This document shows, piece by piece, positions 39,001 to 45,000 of a stretch of 64,000 nt of DNA. This DNA is from Desulfatiglandales bacterium (GTDB lineage Bacteria > Desulfobacterota > DSM-4660 > Desulfatiglandales > Desulfatiglandaceae). The position numbers were made by a program. The stretch is taken from contig OY759599.1 in the NCBI GenBank assembly GCA_963662465.1, positions 5,952,001 to 6,016,000 of the forward strand. Reading direction: 5' to 3'. Numbering within the stretch: position 1 is the first letter of the stretch; each line of letters begins with the position of its first letter.

Positions 39001-42000
39001 ACCCTCTATTATGGCCTGGGGGCCGGCCGAAGACCCACCGGCAGCGCCGTGGTCTCAGACATCATATCCCTGGCCAGGGATATGGTTATGGAAAAGCAAG
39101 GCATGGTTCCACCCTTAGCCCATGTGAAACCGCCGGAAAAGGCCGTTGTGATTCAACCCATGGATGCGTTAGTGACGTCCTATTATTTCAGGGTTTCCGC
39201 CCTTGACACCCCTGGGGTTTTATCAAACATCTCAGGGATTCTAGCCCAAAACGGCATCAGCATATCCTCTGTCATTCAGAAGGGTCGGGACGAAAAAGGT
39301 TCCGTTCCCATTGTCATGCTGACCCATGAAGCACGGGAAAGCCAGGCGCAAAAGGCGATCCAATTGATTGACAATCTCGATGTGGTAACCCATAAGACCG
39401 TGATTATTCGTGTGGAAGGAAACGACCGATGACAAACGAGAAGAAAAGCAAGACCAAATATATTCTCCTGGTAGGCGACGGCATGGGGGATTACCCATTG
39501 CCCCAACTGGATGGTAAAACGCCTCTGGAGGCAGCTCGCACCCCCAATATGGACCGTATTGCCGCCTGCGGAATCGGGCTCGCCAATACCATTCCCGACG
39601 GTCTTGAACCGGGGAGCGATACGGCCAACCTGTCCCTCATGGGCTATGATCCCGCCACGTACCATACGGGGAGAGGCCCCTTTGAAGCGGCCAGCATGGG
39701 CGTGGCACTGGGGGAAAATGAGGTGGCTTTTCGAATGAACCTGGTCGCACTGAACCGAAGATCAGACCGGGAAATCATCATGGTGAGCAACAGCGCCGGG
39801 GGCATCACCACCGAAGAGGCCGGACTTCTGGTGGAGGACCTGAAAAAAAGAATGGTCGTGCCGGGGGTACGCCTTTACCCAGGTGTTGCCTACCGACACC
39901 TTCTGGTATGGGATGGCGGCGATGAAGACGCCGAAACCATTCCGCCTCACGATGTTCAGGACCAGAACATGGCAAGTTACCTGAATCCTGAACGTCAAGA
40001 TCCCATCGTAGACCTTACGCGACTCTCGTGGCCCTTTCTGGAAGGGCACCCCACTAATTTGATTCGCAAAAAGAAAGGGCTGCTTCCGGGCAACTCCATC
40101 TGGTTATGGGGACAGGGAAAGGCGTTGAACGTCCCGAAGTTCAAAGATAAATTCGGTCTTTCGGGCGCGGTCATTTCCGCGGTGGATCTCCTGAAAGGCA
40201 TCGGCGTTTATGCCGGACTCAGAACCATTGAGGTGGAAGGCGCCACCGGGTATCTGGATACCAATTATGCCGGAAAAGCCGAAGAGGCCTTAAAGGCCCT
40301 TGACGATTTGGATTTCATGTTCGTTCACGTGGAGGCGCCTGATGAGGCCGGCCACGAAGGGAATATCCCAGGGAAAATTCAAGCCATCGAAGCCTTCGAT
40401 GAAAAAGTGGTGGGGAACATTCTGAAAGGACTGGAAAAATTTGAAGATTATCGCATTCTGGTGGCGGCCGATCATTTCACCCCCATCTCCAAGAAAACCC
40501 ATACCAGTGACCCCACCCTGTTTGCATGGGCAAACAAACAGGAACTGGCCAAAGGAAAATCAGGCATCGGATTCACGGAACGCTTTGCCCGGAAATCAGG
40601 ACTTCATTTCAAGAAAGGACATGAACTCATGCCCACATTTCTAGGACAATCTTAAGGAACGACTGCGAATCCCTTGACAGGCGCAATGGTTTTGACCTAT
40701 TTTCGGAAAAAAATAAAATGAAGGAGAAAAAAGCATGAAAATACTGTTTTTCGGACCCAATGGCAGCGGCAAAGGCACCCAGGGCGCCATCGTAAAAGAC
40801 AAATACGGCATTCCTCACATTGAAACGGGCGTTATCTTCAGGGATAACATCGGCCGGGGAACCGACCTGGGAAAAGAGGCCAAGGGCTACATCGACAGGG
40901 GGGAACTGGTTCCCGACAGCATCACCATCCCCATGATCCTGGACCGGCTGAAGGAAGCGGACTGCAAGAACGGTTGGCTTCTGGACGGCTTCCCCCGCAA
41001 TCTCACCCAGGCCCAGGAGTTGGATAAGGCGCTGAAAGAGGCGGGCATCACCCTGGATATCGTCATCGACATGAAACTGGACCGGCAGATTGCCAAAGAC
41101 CGCATCATGGGTCGCAGGCTTTGCGTCAACGACAACAACCATCCCAACAATATCTTTATCGACGCCATCAAACCCAAAGACGACAAATGCCGGGTCTGCG
41201 GCGGGGAGCTGAAAACCCGCAGCGACGACCAGGACGAAGCCGCCATCGATCAGCGTCACAACATTTATTATGACACGGAAACGGGCACCACGGCCGGATT
41301 GCTGTTTTATAAAGAGGTTTCGGCGAAAAACAACGGCGTCCCCAGAATTATTGATCTGGAGGGCAAAAACGCTCTGCCGGAAGTATCCGCAGATTTGATG
41401 GGCAAACTGGACCAGGTGTAAGCAAGTACCTAAAATTAGAACCTGAACTCAAAAAAGGGAACATGGCGGTGTCATGTTCCCTTTTTCTTCCATTCGATTG
41501 CAAAACCGTGCTGATCCGTTTTTTCTATTATCGTACCTGAGCCTGATCCGGCTCGGAGAGCGGCGCCATTCCCAGTATCCGCGCAATAACCTGACCTTTC
41601 TGGGAAAAGACAAAATCAATAAAATTATTTTTGTGAAAACACGTCATTTTTATCCCGATGGTTACAATATTTGAGAAAAGACTTGATCATCGAATAACAA
41701 GGGAGTATGACTCAATAAGGAAAGGGGGTGATAGGAAAAAAATAAGGTTGGAGGGACAAGCGGGAAGAAAAGAGACGTCCGGTTTAAAACTGTAAGGAGC
41801 AAGGAGAATGAAATCCGTTAAATTTACAATAGTTATCGCGTTGGCTTTAACTATCTCCTTAGTCTTGTTTTACGGTGGTCAGATGGCCCGTTCCGCTGAC
41901 GGTGAAAATCATTGCTTCACCTGCCATACGAATGCCCAAAAGCTGATAAAGATCACAAGGGAGATTGCAAAGGCCAACAAGGACAAACCAGGGGGCTCCG

Positions 42001-45000
42001 CTGAAACCGAAGGCGAGGGGTGAGGGGGAGACGTGGAGCCGTTGGCTCCGCACGAAAAGTTGTGGGTTGATAGTGCAATAGCCGAGGATGAAAACCATGG
42101 TGAACTTTGCTGTCACGAATGCCATGGTGGCAATCCCAATGATCCAAATTGGAAAACAGCCCATAAGGGCGTAGTTAAAGATCCTTCATATCCAGACGCT
42201 TCCGAGACATGTGGATCGTGCCATGATGAGATTGCGGAGAATTATAAGAGCAGTCTTCACGTGACGCTTTCCCCATTCAAGAAAATGATAGATATGCGGG
42301 CTAATCCAAACAAGGATGTGCATGCCAAGGTGGATGCCGCCAGAGGGTCCCATTGCAATGCCTGTCACAGCAGTTGCGGTCAATGTCATATCAGCCGCCC
42401 TGAGGCAGTGGGTGGCGGCCTGTTGGAGGGTCACCTTTTCCAGAGAAGACCCCCCATGCATACCGTTTGTACGGGATGCCATGGGAGTCGTATCGAAAAA
42501 GAGTATTTTGGCAAGAACAAGGGTATTCCTCCTGACATTCATAAACAGAAATATTTTAGATGCACCAAGTGTCACAAGGCTGATGAAATGCACGGAGACG
42601 GCAAGGCGTATGCCAACAGACATGAGGTGGAGAACGGTCCAAAGTGTTTAGACTGCCACGAGGATATCTACCAGCAAAAAGCGAAAAATCCCAAAAGCCA
42701 CTGGATCCACAAAGATCAGGTCAGTTGTCAGGTCTGCCATTCCATGCCTTACAAGAATTGTTATAGCTGTCATGTTGGAAAAGACAAACAGGGCTTTACA
42801 TTCTATAAGAACAAGGAATCTCCCATTGAGTTCAAGGTGGGTCTAAATCCCCTGCAATCGGAGAAAAGGCCTGAAAAATTTGTCACACTCCGCCATGTTC
42901 CAGTAGATCATAAGACTTTCGATTTCTATGTGAAAAACGGCTTGTCCAACTTCGACTCGTTTCCTAACTGGAAACTTGCCACACCCCATAATATCAGGCG
43001 ACACACACCTCAAAACAAGACCTGTAATAATTGTCACGGCAACACAGCGTTGTTCTTGCTTGAGAAGGATGTTAAGCCGGATTACCGGAAGGCCAACAGG
43101 AATGTTATTGTGCCTCCGGCCCTGGTTCCCCAAAAAAGGAGCAATTAGTGCAGAGTTTGCTTGCTTGCAAGCTTGGCTTTAAACCCAAAACCCAATTACA
43201 TAAGGAGAAAAGCCGATGAAAAAACGTTCACTTTTTGTATTTGCGCTGGTATTTATGTTCGTCTTCGCCTTTGCTGTTCCTCAAACTATGGCAGAAGATA
43301 TGACTGCCGAAAATTTCGTTGCAGAAGCGAAAAAGGATGTCTGTGAGGTCTCGGTCTCTGATGCCAAGGGGATGCTGGATAAGGGAGGATGTGTTTTTTT
43401 AGATTGCCGGGAACCAAAGGAATTCAAAATGGGGCATGTCCCGGGCGCCGTCAATATCCCCCGTGGGCTGATGGAATGGAAGGTTTCCAAGAAAATTCCG
43501 GATAAGACCGCCAAAATCGTTGTTTACTGTAAGGTAGGGGGCCGGGGTTGCCTATCCGCCTGTACCCTTTGTCGCATGGGTTACAAAAACGTTGTTAACA
43601 TAGCGGGTGGATGGCAGGCATGGGAAAAGGCGGGGTATCCTGTTGAATAGGTAAAAGCGTATGAACGAAAACCCTGTTCAGGCACAATGTTGAATGATAA
43701 GGGAACATGACGATGTCATGTTCCCTTTTTCTTCTATTCGATCGGCAAAACCATGCGGATCCGTTTTTTCTATTATTTTGTCTGAAGCTGCTCCGGCTCA
43801 GGCAGCGGCGCCATTCCCAGTTTTCGCGCAATAGCCTGACCTTTCTGGGAAAAGACAAAATCGATAAAAGCCTTTACCGATCCTTTCGGCGTCCCTTTGG
43901 TCACAAAGGAAAACTCCTGAACATAAGGATAGTCTTTGTCTTTTGGTAAAAGGCCGTTAATCTTGATTTTCGTAAGTTCCCGCCGTGCGGTTGTGGCCCC
44001 CTGGGTAATGAAGGAAATAGCCCCTTTGAGGCATGATACGGAATCCATAACCATTGTGGACCGATAGGTCATCAAATCATATTTTATCTCACGACGTTTC
44101 ATGACAACCCGCTGAAAATTTTTAAAAGTGCCGGTATTTTTGTCTGGGATGACAATCACAATGGGCAGATTTTCACCTCCCAATTCCTCCCAATTGGTGA
44201 TATCCCCGCTGAAAATCTCTTCCAGCTGTTTGGATGAAACGTTTTTAACACAACATCCCTCGTTGACAATCACCGCAAGAGGATCCTTGCAAAACGGTAT
44301 TTCCACATAACCCCACTCTTTGTGTCGAGGATAGAGACGTCGCGTAGTGCTTACGATATCACAGAAATCGTTCATCAAACGATTGACTGCCGATGCTGAG
44401 GACGTAATGTATAAATCCACCGGAATCCCTGTCTCTTTTGTAAACGCATCCAATCGTTCATGTTCAAATGCTTCGTAAACCTGGGCGGAGCAACTATATC
44501 GCAATGGCTGCTGGGCCATCACATTCCTCTCGGAAAACCCCCAGTAGCCCAATAGACCCACTAACAATGCCAGGAATAACGTAAAATGTTCTTTTTTCAT
44601 AATGACGCCTCCTTTAGTTTTGTTTTCCCATAAAAACTAAGATACTCCATTTCATGTTCTTTGAAAAGCAAAACATGTGCCGAAATCTTCATGGGGGAAA
44701 AAAGCACTTATGTCCGTGGAGAAACTAGGAATTTTTTAAAAAATCAGCGAAGAACGATAATGATCGATTATCGGGACGTCAAATGACTTTACAACCTGTA
44801 AAATCAAGCACAACGGTTAACGATCGGTTAAGCTTTAGCATTAACAGTTGACAGCCAGGTTGCCGACCCTATATTCTTTCCACTTCCGCGACCCTAAAGC
44901 CACAAACATCCTCAAGAAAGGAACGTATACATGTCTCAAGACCTCATACCACATATTGACCGGTTGATTCTGCAAAGACCTGCCTCCAAAGCCGCACTGG

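Follow-up and report, generated by a model that had tools for sequence, protein, structure and literature searches.

A probable selenocysteine-containing undecahaem cytochrome c encoded beside a rhodanese gene in a Desulfatiglandales bacterium

Two neighbouring gene calls in the genome of a Desulfatiglandales bacterium, g05474 and g05475, are separated by little more than an in-frame TGA, and the question raised by this locus is whether that codon ends a short cytochrome peptide or encodes selenocysteine (Sec) in a much larger protein, and what such a protein might do next to a rhodanese. We analysed the locus within a window of 64,000 nucleotides of contig OY759599.1. Our best explanation, to which we give a probability of about 0.8 as a whole, is that the locus encodes an exported undecahaem Sec-containing reductase with a core resembling octahaem tetrathionate reductase (OTR), and that this enzyme works with the rhodanese encoded directly after it.

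The gene and its in-frame UGA

The ORFs at 41808-42023 (71 aa) and 42033-43148 (371 aa) share one frame, with a single TGA and 9 nt between them. The first-pass annotation had proposed that they form one gene read through codon 72, and this is borne out here: the TGA is the only one in the frame, and translation with TGA as U yields 446 aa up to a TAG stop codon (43146-43148), reproducing both U72 in the motif ETEGEG-U-GGDVEP and the 11 CxxCH motifs, which start at C36, C102, C135, C183, C190, C221, C252, C280, C307, C318 and C406. A signal peptide is predicted at approximately residues 1 to 30. The two split calls very likely represent a single gene for an exported eleven-haem cytochrome, in which UGA72 would be read as selenocysteine with the aid of a downstream hairpin (Table 1).

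Table 1. Features of the locus, in window coordinates
Feature	Position	Strand	Basis
Direct repeat of ~170 nt, upstream copy	41455..41624	.	Repeat search (families D1, D2); 87-88% identity
Shine-Dalgarno-like AAGGAG, 8 nt 5' of the cytochrome ATG	41794..41799	+	Sequence reading
Predicted undecahaem cytochrome c selenoprotein gene, 446 aa, exported	41808..43148	+	Translation with TGA=U; homologues conserved on either side of the TGA
In-frame TGA, putative selenocysteine 72, in an invariant G-E-G-U-G-G loop between haem motifs 1 and 2	42021..42023	+	Homologue comparison
bSECIS-type hairpin, 8-bp stem GUGGAGCC/GGCUCCGC, apical loop GUU	42033..42051	+	Pairing, covariation, synonymous entropy
Shine-Dalgarno-like AAGGAG 5' of the rhodanese gene	43202..43207	+	Sequence reading
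Single-domain rhodanese, 144 aa, signal peptide, active-site loop C105-KVGGR	43216..43650	+	Pfam PF00581, 85.6 bits (cut-off 22.2)
Intrinsic terminator, 13-bp stem and T-run, at the end of the two-gene operon	43699..43727	+	Promoter/terminator scan

Conservation of the UGA, previously noted in eight of eight matches, extends much further. Exactly one TGA, at the corresponding place, is present in 50 of the 51 site-covering homologues of the order, in 46 of 47 matches (33-100% identity) from the phylum as a whole and in 74 of the 80 best loci of a species-genome collection. All 30 loci of one set and all 27 of another that were read individually have it at the identical position, and the homologues share the context G-U-G-G/A-G in the stretch from haem motif 1 to haem motif 2. 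It also proved correct that 118 of the 120 best protein relatives are 337-378 aa long and cover 76-83% of the query, while the two full-length relatives (444 aa) carry GEWCGG and GEGWGG at the Sec site. Cys is found there in the close homologue P0083 (GEWCGG), in five paralogues of a paralogous clade (EGCGG) and in 15 of the 150 best 50%-identity representatives; a further 35 of these 150 start at query positions 76-82, directly past the site, and look as Sec calls cut at the UGA would. In one close homologue this site is occupied by TGG (Trp), and more remote representatives vary here, with W, A, Y, L, R and other residues. Metatranscriptome contigs of a relative with ~93% identity bridge the TGA, and as contigs of that relative they are no proof of transcription here. 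Third codon positions of one frame account for 33 of the 40 listed differences in these contigs and for 8 of the 9 upstream of the TGA, and no listed difference lies at 42014-62.

The hairpin that had been described downstream of the UGA was recovered as GUGGAGCC-GUU-GGCUCCGC. Its stem starts 9 nt downstream of the TGA, with the 6-bp core GGAGCC beginning 11 nt past the TGA (14 nt if its T is taken as the origin) and the apical loop starting 17 nt past the UGA, and it conforms to the bSECIS rule quoted in PMC13188914. In two analyses, 97.8% and 97.2% of cells across homologues were paired, compensatory changes had altered five of the eight pairs on both sides (23 cells), and the covariation score was reached by none of 500 shuffles. 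The stem is kept even where the peptide changes from VEPLAP to VAPLEP in another clade. Codons +4 to +7 have zero synonymous entropy, with one codon used in 28-30 of 30 distinct sequences, whereas nearby invariant Gly codons have an entropy of 1.4-1.96 bits. When 71 nt of the window were folded alone, the energy was no better than that of shuffles (z -0.04) and the hairpin was visible only in the centroid structure. The hairpin, with its covariation and suppressed synonymous variation, is of the SECIS type.

The genome also encodes SelB (382 bits; cut-off 242) and tRNA-Sec (70.7 bits; cut-off 47), and a canonical Sec-containing formate dehydrogenase FdhA with the motif HQARIUH is encoded in the same window. 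Elsewhere in the genome, a genuine OTR gene (516.8 bits; cut-off 375) carries a TGA as well. All four classical lines of evidence for a bacterial selenoprotein gene are present here, and because the UGA is conserved at one position, has Cys counterparts, is followed by a covarying SECIS-type hairpin and occurs in a genome with Sec machinery, we consider it very likely that the locus is a genuine selenoprotein gene.

Predicted fold and the rhodanese partner

An AF2 model of the cytochrome, built without haems and with Cys in place of Sec, has a pLDDT of 93.9 and a pTM of 0.87. Residues 94-445 of this model resemble OTR 1sp3 (chain 1-436) with Z 8.4, an rmsd of 4.4 Å and 251 aligned residues, the next row in the comparison reaching only Z 4.4; Foldseek alone gave E 2e-3, TM 0.37 and a probability of 0.99 for the same match. 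Sec72 lies outside the aligned range, and the model suggests a core that resembles the OTR fold and an N-terminal extension that adds haem 1 and the G-E-G-U-G-G loop. This loop is coil and yet has a pLDDT of 90-93, and it is therefore predicted to pack on the core. Sec/Cys72 is the only conserved Cys/Sec of the family outside the CxxCH motifs. There are nine invariant non-motif His for the 11 haems, so that two haems would have no conserved His as distal ligand.

The rhodanese gene reported to follow the cytochrome gene is present, and a strong terminator lies at the end of the operon. The operon is bracketed by the direct repeat, whose second copy (43699-43869) is spaced ~2245 nt from the first and which consists of a terminator hairpin together with a duplicate of the 3' end of gene 43773-44600 on the minus strand. 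As part of our best explanation, the cytochrome gene is probably co-transcribed with that of the rhodanese, a predicted periplasmic protein bearing a catalytic Cys. Of the 80 best loci, 69 have a rhodanese-family ORF in their 6-kb flanks; in 64 of these 69 it is on the same strand, at a median of 53 nt downstream of the cytochrome gene. Cys105 is kept in 62 of 65. The other 11 loci have no such ORF within these flanks, and tblastn searches with the rhodanese of the window found none in several distant clades. One relative, P0125, is a PKD-rhodanese-rhodanese-cytochrome fusion. Two others, P0123 and P0124, continue with additional haems and end in a cytochrome b region; PF01292 was matched in P0124 (36.7 bits; cut-off 30.1) and not in P0123, and both match models of formate dehydrogenase cytochrome b below threshold. 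In 6 of the 80 loci, the next gene downstream encodes a cytochrome b as a protein of its own. The enzyme family is widespread, and its carriers are mostly labelled sulfate or sulfur-compound reducers.

Proposed function, alternatives and family identity

A functional link with the rhodanese had been drawn from its position next to the cytochrome gene. It is now much better supported, by the 69 of 80 loci and the fusion, and from neighbours, fusions and analogy we infer the role of Sec72 and a reductase that depends on Sec and haem and acts on sulfane sulfur or polythionates; that the enzyme is a sulfur-compound reductase working with the rhodanese has, in our judgement, an even chance of being right. 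In the mechanism that we propose, the rhodanese would accept a sulfane sulfur from a donor such as polysulfide or thiosulfate, carry it as a persulfide and hand it to the cytochrome, where Sec72, on the distal face of a haem without a conserved His ligand, would attack the sulfur to give a Se-S intermediate. Electrons from the haem chain would then cleave the Se-S bond and release sulfide. These electrons may come from the periplasmic cytochrome pool here and from the adjacent or fused membrane cytochrome b in other lineages.

A less likely variant, which differs from the best explanation only in the role of Sec, is that Sec72 itself is the distal axial ligand of a His/Sec-ligated haem c, as in TsdA or SoxAX, and leaves the iron to form a covalent adduct with thiosulfate or a polythionate; the enzyme would interconvert thiosulfate and tetrathionate or reduce polysulfide. 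The single conserved Cys/Sec, the nine His for 11 haems and the confidently modelled coil loop are consistent with such ligation, as are, among homologues with neither Sec nor Cys at the site, Met in L162, L168 (GPSMAG), P0137 and P0239 and His in P0148 (GEGHSD). In OTR-type Sec proteins, the Sec is close to the active haem and is not known to be its ligand. Non-ligating residues in remote homologues (W in 5, A in 5, L in 2 and R in 2 of the 42 that have a residue there, with an uncertain loop alignment) likewise argue against the variant. His/Cys-ligated haems are catalytic in TsdA and, as haem 2, in MccSep, but the Sec of MccSep is close to the active haem without being its ligand (PMC13510729).

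Sulfane sulfur or polythionates, the substrates of our preferred reading, could also be the wrong choice, with selenite, tellurite or nitrogen oxides (nitrite or hydroxylamine, for example) being reduced instead and the rhodanese serving selenium handling or being unrelated. MccSep also reduces selenite, and a title cited in the same paper has OTR reducing nitrite and hydroxylamine in vitro (PMC13510729). Furthermore, the best NCBIfam match, far below its cut-off, is to a cytochrome from an operon for the reduction of selenite/tellurite, and the rhodanese is weakly similar to the rhodanese domains of selenouridine synthases. However, what accompanies the cytochrome almost everywhere is an ordinary rhodanese that has its catalytic Cys, the classical sulfane-sulfur carrier; the carriers' labels mostly point to sulfur metabolism, and the 22 neighbour ORF clusters that are shared most widely include no nitrogen-cycle genes. 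We regard a non-sulfur substrate as improbable.

As to the identity of the family, the Pfam matches listed in the first-pass annotation (Cytochrom_c3_2, Cytochrome_C7 and Cytochrome_C554) were reproduced, and so was the lone NCBIfam match, to ExtM (42.6 bits; cut-off 800); at E<=1 there was no NCBIfam match to ExtKL, GSU2204, TIGR04315, NF049953 'GUxG' or other selenoprotein models. In agreement with the earlier account, the main text of the 2026 review contains 'cytochrome' three times and 'CXXCH' once, the families mentioned there being ExtKL, GSU2204 and OTR and no others, and the present family was not found in the examined passages of its table of selenoproteins. The separation from these three recorded cytochrome selenoprotein families holds for the NCBIfam models, but OTR is a distant fold relative, and TIGR04315 weakly matches 14 of 99 members of the family (best E 5.9e-10). 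Since residues 94-445 have an OTR-like fold, the family would be new as a selenoprotein family and not as an orphan fold, and it has quite probably not yet been catalogued as a selenoprotein.

We think it very unlikely that the protein is merely a divergent TIGR04315 OTR, and nothing new in a family that already holds selenoproteins. The structural match to 1sp3, the weak matches of the 14 members and the location of Sec between the first and second haem motifs in both families fit this idea, but the window protein has no TIGR04315 match even at E<=1, the genome holds a separate true OTR with its own TGA, and the two types differ in CxxCH number (11 versus 8), Sec motif (G-E-G-U-G-G versus N-x-F-U) and distance of Sec from motif 2 (30 versus ~10 residues). 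The chance that the TGA is a true stop between a monohaem peptide of 71 aa and a decahaem protein of 371 aa with a start codon of its own, as the split by gene callers here and in 118 of 120 relatives and a GTG 9 nt past the TGA might suggest, is negligible, since c-type cytochromes need export and the downstream ORF taken alone has no signal peptide, so that its product could not receive haem, and since frame, flanking peptide and the single TGA are conserved to 33% identity, Cys homologues are uninterrupted, the downstream start is not kept as a start and its codon encodes stem residues in other clades, and the hairpin covaries.

Comparison with known systems

The closest fold is that of OTR (1sp3, TIGR04315), of which Sec forms exist, including the one in the same genome, and which has its Sec/Cys between haem motifs 1 and 2. 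It differs in having 8 haem motifs and a Sec nearer to motif 2, whereas that of the window protein is in an N-terminal segment; the active-site haem of OTR is Lys-ligated. Wolinella succinogenes has the Sud-Psr system, in which a polysulfide reductase is supplied by a rhodanese-like polysulfide-sulfur transferase of the periplasm, and the pairing of a small periplasmic rhodanese-type carrier with a terminal sulfane-sulfur reductase is alike, although Psr is a molybdopterin enzyme and not a cytochrome c selenoprotein. TsdA and SoxAX resemble the bolder form of the proposed mechanism, with a chalcogen at or on the haem iron as the nucleophile for S-S chemistry (PMC13510729). They are dihaem proteins of another fold with Cys instead of Sec, and sequence and structure searches with the window protein gave no match to them.

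MccSep/ExtKL (Geobacter sulfurreducens GSU2937-2936; NF040886) is likewise a periplasmic multihaem cytochrome c with one UGA-encoded Sec and a SECIS-like hairpin 3' of the UGA. It is often split by gene callers and, like the family described here, occurs mainly in Desulfobacterota and in Sec and Cys forms. According to an entry in the reference list of PMC13510729, the Geobacter ExtKL cluster includes the rhodanese-like ExtH. MccSep differs in having 5 haems; its Sec325 belongs to a D-G-U-P loop within the Ig-like domain at the C terminus, and a further conserved residue, Cys239, ligates a haem. The window protein, by contrast, carries 11 haem motifs and has Sec72 in its N-terminal loop, no second conserved Cys and no NF040886 match at E<=1. 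As a Sec- and haem-dependent polysulfide reductase (PMC13510729), MccSep nevertheless offers the best functional analogy for the cleavage of chalcogen bonds by Sec and haem together.

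Evidence for selenocysteine decoding of the cytochrome gene

The first-pass annotation proposed that two adjacent gene calls are one cytochrome gene interrupted by an in-frame TGA, and our analysis bears this out. The two open reading frames (ORFs) share a frame and, when the TGA is read as selenocysteine (Sec), yield a protein of 446 amino acids with an N-terminal signal peptide, 11 CxxCH haem motifs (starting at C36, C102, C135, C183, C190, C221, C252, C280, C307, C318, and C406), and U72 in the sequence ETEGEG-U-GGDVEPLAPHEK. One continuous frame is favored because the ORF after the TGA lacks the signal peptide that a c-type cytochrome needs, and the retention among homologues of the peptide on either side of the TGA is a further sign of a single coding frame.

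Features of the cytochrome-rhodanese locus and its surroundings (positions in the window)
Feature	Position	Strand	Remarks
Direct repeat, first copy	41455-41624		87-88% identical to second copy
ORF upstream of TGA	41808-42023	+	Same frame as ORF 42033-43148
In-frame TGA (Sec72)	42021-42023	+	Translated with TGA = U
bSECIS-type hairpin	42033-42051		8-bp stem GUGGAGCC/GGCUCCGC, loop GUU; starts 9 nt past UGA
ORF downstream of TGA	42033-43148	+	9 nt and the single TGA between the two ORFs
Rhodanese	43216-43650	+	144 aa, own signal peptide; Pfam PF00581
Terminator	43699-43727		13-bp stem; closes the cytochrome-rhodanese pair
Direct repeat, second copy	43699-43869
Flanking gene	43773-44600	-
FdhE-like gene	44931-45758
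FdhA	47845-50910	+	Gene calls split at in-frame TGA, codon 192, HQARIUH

Matches to the cytochrome were found in 57 of 201 sampled genomes of the order, and exactly one in-frame TGA is present in 50 of the 51 matches that cover the site (≥46% identity), the sole exception being a genome (G071) with TGG. Across the phylum, 44 of 401 genomes gave a match; 46 of 47 matches (33-100% identity) have one TGA, and the remaining one is a fragment spanning residues 157-442. Wherever the location was read directly (30 of 30 order loci and 27 of 27 phylum loci), the TGA lies between haem motifs 1 and 2, in the context G-U-G-G or, in remote clades, G-U-A-G or G-U-G-[VS]. A collection with one genome per species contains at least 588 relatives among 599 pattern matches, and TGA occupies the site in 74 of the 80 best loci; the other six comprise two whose N-terminal part is missing from the frame read, a Trp variant, two with Met (GPSMAG), and a different, 14-haem protein.

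Cys is found at the aligned site, in an uninterrupted frame, in a paralogous clade of five genomes (37-39% identity, ..EGCGG..). A profile search of representatives of clusters at 50% identity gave 1420 matches at E ≤ 1e-3 and 211 at E ≤ 1e-30; among the best 150 representatives, 15 have Cys at the site and 35 start at query positions 76-82, just past it, as truncated Sec calls would. The earlier counts were reproduced: 118 of 120 database relatives are truncated, at 337-378 aa, and the two full-length ones (444 aa) read GEWCGG (P0083) and GEGWGG.

The Trp variant (L047/L164; MAG chromosome CP070657.1, match 1639173-1640471) is 61% identical and has TGG in place of TGA. Its SECIS hairpin is identical letter for letter despite the Trp codon, and no rhodanese was found in the ~3 kb that follow. 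Such a locus might reflect recent loss, decay of the copy, or a mistake in sequencing or assembly. The two Met loci (L162 and L168; 44-45% identity) are in MAGs labelled Thermodesulfobacteriota. Met is also found at the site in two cluster representatives (P0137 and P0239) and His in a third (P0148), both residues being able to ligate haem.

The loop of the hairpin behind the TGA starts 17 nt past the UGA with G and then U. This satisfies the bSECIS rule as quoted in passages of a May 2026 selenoprotein inventory (PMC13188914), namely, a hairpin after the UGA with G in the first two loop positions and an apical loop 16-37 nt from the UGA. The stem pairs in 97.8% of cells among 33 order-level sequences and in 97.2% among 27 sequences across the phylum; in the latter set, two-sided changes occur in five of eight stem pairs (23 cells), the covariation score was matched by 0 of 500 shuffles, and slid registers pair only 29-50%. 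The compensation is visible even in the protein, where VEPLAP (GAG CCG UUG GCU) becomes VAPLEP (GCU CCG UUG GAG) in another clade, and further clades have AP-L-AP, DP-L-DP, or VP-L-EP at the stem. Codon choice at positions +4 to +7 (Val, Glu, Pro, and Leu) is nearly fixed, with one codon used in 28-30 of the 30 distinct close sequences, and the invariant Gly codons -3, +1, +2, +26, and +36 show a synonymous entropy of 1.4-1.96 bits. In two remote clades, the hairpin at about this distance from the TGA is a different one. Since folding of the window's 71 nt around the TGA alone gave an energy no better than that of shuffles (z -0.04), the support for the hairpin is comparative and not energetic.

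The machinery for Sec insertion is present in the genome, with selB (382.1 bits; cut-off, 242), tRNA-Sec (70.7 bits; cut-off, 47), and, within the window, a canonical Sec-containing FdhA. Furthermore, in two metatranscriptome runs from a single study, the TGA is bridged by contigs belonging to a relative of 90-95% identity; as contigs, they say nothing on transcription, strand, or level. The contig differences listed fall at third codon positions of one frame in 33 of 40 cases; upstream of the TGA this holds for 8 of 9, and no difference is listed between 42014 and 42062. Taken together, these comparisons support the gene model and its Sec decoding very well, and we put the probability of this reading at roughly 95%.

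The rhodanese partner and the genomic setting

The cytochrome gene is followed by a rhodanese gene (PF00581 match of 85.6 bits against a cut-off of 22.2), and this arrangement recurs among relatives. With the window rhodanese as the query, 28 of 30 order-level loci showed a same-strand match downstream of the cytochrome, and one of the two exceptions has a flank of only 299 nt. In the genome collection, a rhodanese-family ORF is present within the 6-kb flanks of 69 of the 80 best loci; in 64 cases it is on the cytochrome strand, with a median downstream offset of 53 nt. The catalytic Cys105 in the active-site loop is kept in 62 of 65 aligned neighbors, and the other Cys residues of the rhodanese are not conserved. 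In one relative (P0125; 946 aa, 36% identity), an N-terminal PKD domain, two rhodanese domains, and the cytochrome module are fused in one protein.

Other relatives are joined to a cytochrome b. Two of them (P0123 and P0124; 959-962 aa) begin right past the TGA, and hence are probably Sec forms that gene calling truncated; they carry extra haems and then a C-terminal cytochrome b region, with PF01292 above its cut-off in P0124 only (36.7 bits against 30.1) and sub-threshold matches to formate dehydrogenase cytochrome b models in both. A separate cytochrome b gene lies directly downstream in 6 of the 80 best loci. An ORF family of ~450 aa, which by eye looks like a PAS-domain sigma-54-type activator, lies near the cytochrome in 24 of the 80 best loci (flanks of L097-L176), with a median offset upstream. 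In the window, neither an adjacent cytochrome b membrane partner nor such a regulator was found. FdhA is followed there by an Fe-S subunit gene, an FdhE-like gene also lies in the window, and formate dehydrogenase genes lie ≤6 kb from the cytochrome in 8-10 of the 80 best related loci.

A direct repeat of ~170 nt exactly brackets the cytochrome-rhodanese operon, and each copy consists of a terminator hairpin and the 3' end, or a copy of the 3' end, of the minus-strand flanking gene. This pattern suggests that a two-gene cassette may have been inserted between adk and the flanking gene with target duplication. When five same-genus genomes were searched with flanking-gene DNA, only a 95% relative (G198) matched, with the same layout and an upstream matching stretch of only ~69 nt; an empty site was not found with this query in the other four, and insertion of the operon therefore remains a suggestion.

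Haem ligands and a possible function of Sec72

In the alignment, nine non-motif His residues are invariant (H97, H119, H151, H209, H245, H262, H298, H301, and H394) for 11 haems, and position 72 is the only conserved Cys/Sec position outside the haem motifs. A periplasmic rhodanese is a classical sulfane-sulfur carrier, and octahaem tetrathionate reductase (OTR), the fold relative of the cytochrome, acts on tetrathionate. In MccSep, a Sec beside a haem is able to cleave polysulfide, according to passages of the paper describing it (PMC13510729). The rhodanese role, the MccSep precedent, and the OTR substrate lead us to propose that the cytochrome is a terminal reductase for sulfane sulfur or polythionates that depends on Sec and haem. 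The catalytic Cys of the rhodanese would take up a persulfide and hand the sulfur to Sec72, giving an Se-S intermediate whose bond would be cleaved reductively by the haem wire, with electrons coming from the periplasmic cytochrome pool here and from quinol via cytochrome b elsewhere. We consider such a mechanism plausible, with the balance between it and other functions about even.

A more tentative but attractive idea, which we consider less likely than not, is that Sec72 itself serves as distal axial ligand to one of the 11 haems, forming a His/Sec haem. Hints in its favor are that two haems are without a conserved His ligand, that no chalcogen residue other than Sec/Cys72 is to spare, and that some homologues without Sec or Cys have Met or His at the aligned site; it is weakened by the non-ligating residues that other remote homologues have there and by the uncertain alignment of that region. 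The enzyme might then operate by a TsdA-like ligand switch with selenium, making and breaking Se-S bonds on rhodanese-delivered sulfur. If true, this would be the first natural His/selenocysteine-ligated haem, a cofactor chemistry unseen in nature so far, and would define a widespread class of chalcogen reductases, respiratory enzymes of anoxic sediments that have escaped notice until now. For the Sec- and haem-dependent sulfur reductase, the rhodanese pairing and the cytochrome b of some lineages suggest that sulfate reducers and related bacteria process sulfane sulfur or polythionates in the periplasm by an unrecognized route.

Distribution and relation to known cytochrome families

Two cultured bacteria, Desulfosarcina widdelii PP31 and Dethiosulfatarculus sandiegensis SPR, are among the carriers and make the family testable, and the 50%-identity clusters at E ≤ 1e-30 number 211. 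Relatives of 40-59% identity are present in MAGs that their depositors labelled Spirochaetaceae, Leptospirales, Anaerolineae, Calditrichaceae, Deferribacteres, and Bdellovibrionales, which suggests either a spread beyond Desulfobacterota or mis-binning. In databases, relatives are named hypothetical protein, cytochrome c3 family, cytochrome c554, or, in a misplaced manner, thiosulfate/3-mercaptopyruvate sulfurtransferase; the last is a JGI name on many truncated cytochromes and was probably carried over from fused or adjacent rhodaneses. As nearly all of the best database entries are truncated, selenoproteome, cytochrome, and sulfur-cycle surveys fail to see the family. No description of an 11-haem Sec family was found in searches of the openly accessible literature, and it is likely that the family is uncatalogued.

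An AlphaFold2 model built from a 99-sequence alignment, with Cys in place of Sec and without haems, has a pLDDT of 93.9 and a pTM of 0.87, and the Sec loop reaches a pLDDT of 90-93 though it is coil. Foldseek against the PDB gave no match at E ≤ 0.001, the sole notable entry being 1sp3, the Shewanella OTR (E of 2e-3, probability of 0.99). In a full VIA search, 1sp3_A aligned with a Z score of 8.4 (root mean square deviation of 4.4 Å, 251 aligned residues, 19% identity, model residues 94-445 against chain residues 1-436), followed by HAO with a Z score of 4.4; thus, the core of the predicted structure is OTR-like. In this model the resemblance is confined to the core, with residues 1-93, which hold haem 1 and the Sec loop, forming an extension. 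A sequence search of solved structures gave marginal haem-motif matches only (5ze8, E of 5e-4; UndA, E of 9.5e-4, by profile).

No NCBIfam model matched the cytochrome above threshold. The sub-threshold match to ExtM (NF040943) noted previously was obtained again, at 42.6 bits against a cut-off of 800 and over positions 35-101 of 599, as were the matches to three Pfam cytochrome families; ExtM matches, all weak, occur in 65 of the 99 family members. NF049953 (Hypothetical protein DG, GUxG), a family in the table of the selenoprotein inventory, was rejected as an identity, as the NCBIfam scan did not return it at E ≤ 1, its presence in the release scanned being deduced from the higher accession numbers there.

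The haem-related selenoprotein families named in passages of the inventory are ExtKL, the GSU2204 family, and the OTR family (PMC13188914), and the claim that the cytochrome is distinct from all three holds for the defining features compared. Identity with OTR by sequence is ruled out by the lack of a match to TIGR04315 (cut-off, 375) at E ≤ 1 and by the presence of weak matches in only 14 of 99 family members. True OTRs have 8 CxxCH motifs and an N-x-F-[U/C] motif ~10 residues before haem motif 2 (five Sec and two Cys loci), whereas the window protein has 11 and carries its Sec 30 residues before motif 2, in GEGUGG. A genome search with TIGR04315 found not the window cytochrome but a true OTR-family protein outside the window (L096; contig positions 6200577-6201848, minus strand; 516.8 bits), which has an in-frame TGA of its own, in ..NNFU.. 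ahead of haem motif 2, so that two different Sec multihaem cytochromes are encoded in this organism. The CXXCH (seleno)protein model of the GSU2204 family (NF041027) likewise had no match at E ≤ 1 and is absent among the families matched by the 99 members, as is the case for the ExtKL/MccSep model (NF040886). ExtKL/MccSep proteins have five haem motifs, a Sec in a D-G-U-P loop of the C-terminal domain, and a conserved haem-ligating Cys, in contrast to the 11 motifs, N-terminal Sec, and absence of any other conserved Cys seen here.

Sec multihaem cytochromes as such are already known, and only lately have they been proven to be real enzymes, with MccSep in 2026, as passages of that work report (PMC13510729). 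What would be new is a further family of this kind, with a new placement of Sec on an OTR-like scaffold, and it would add to these enzymes a member structurally distinct from MccSep.
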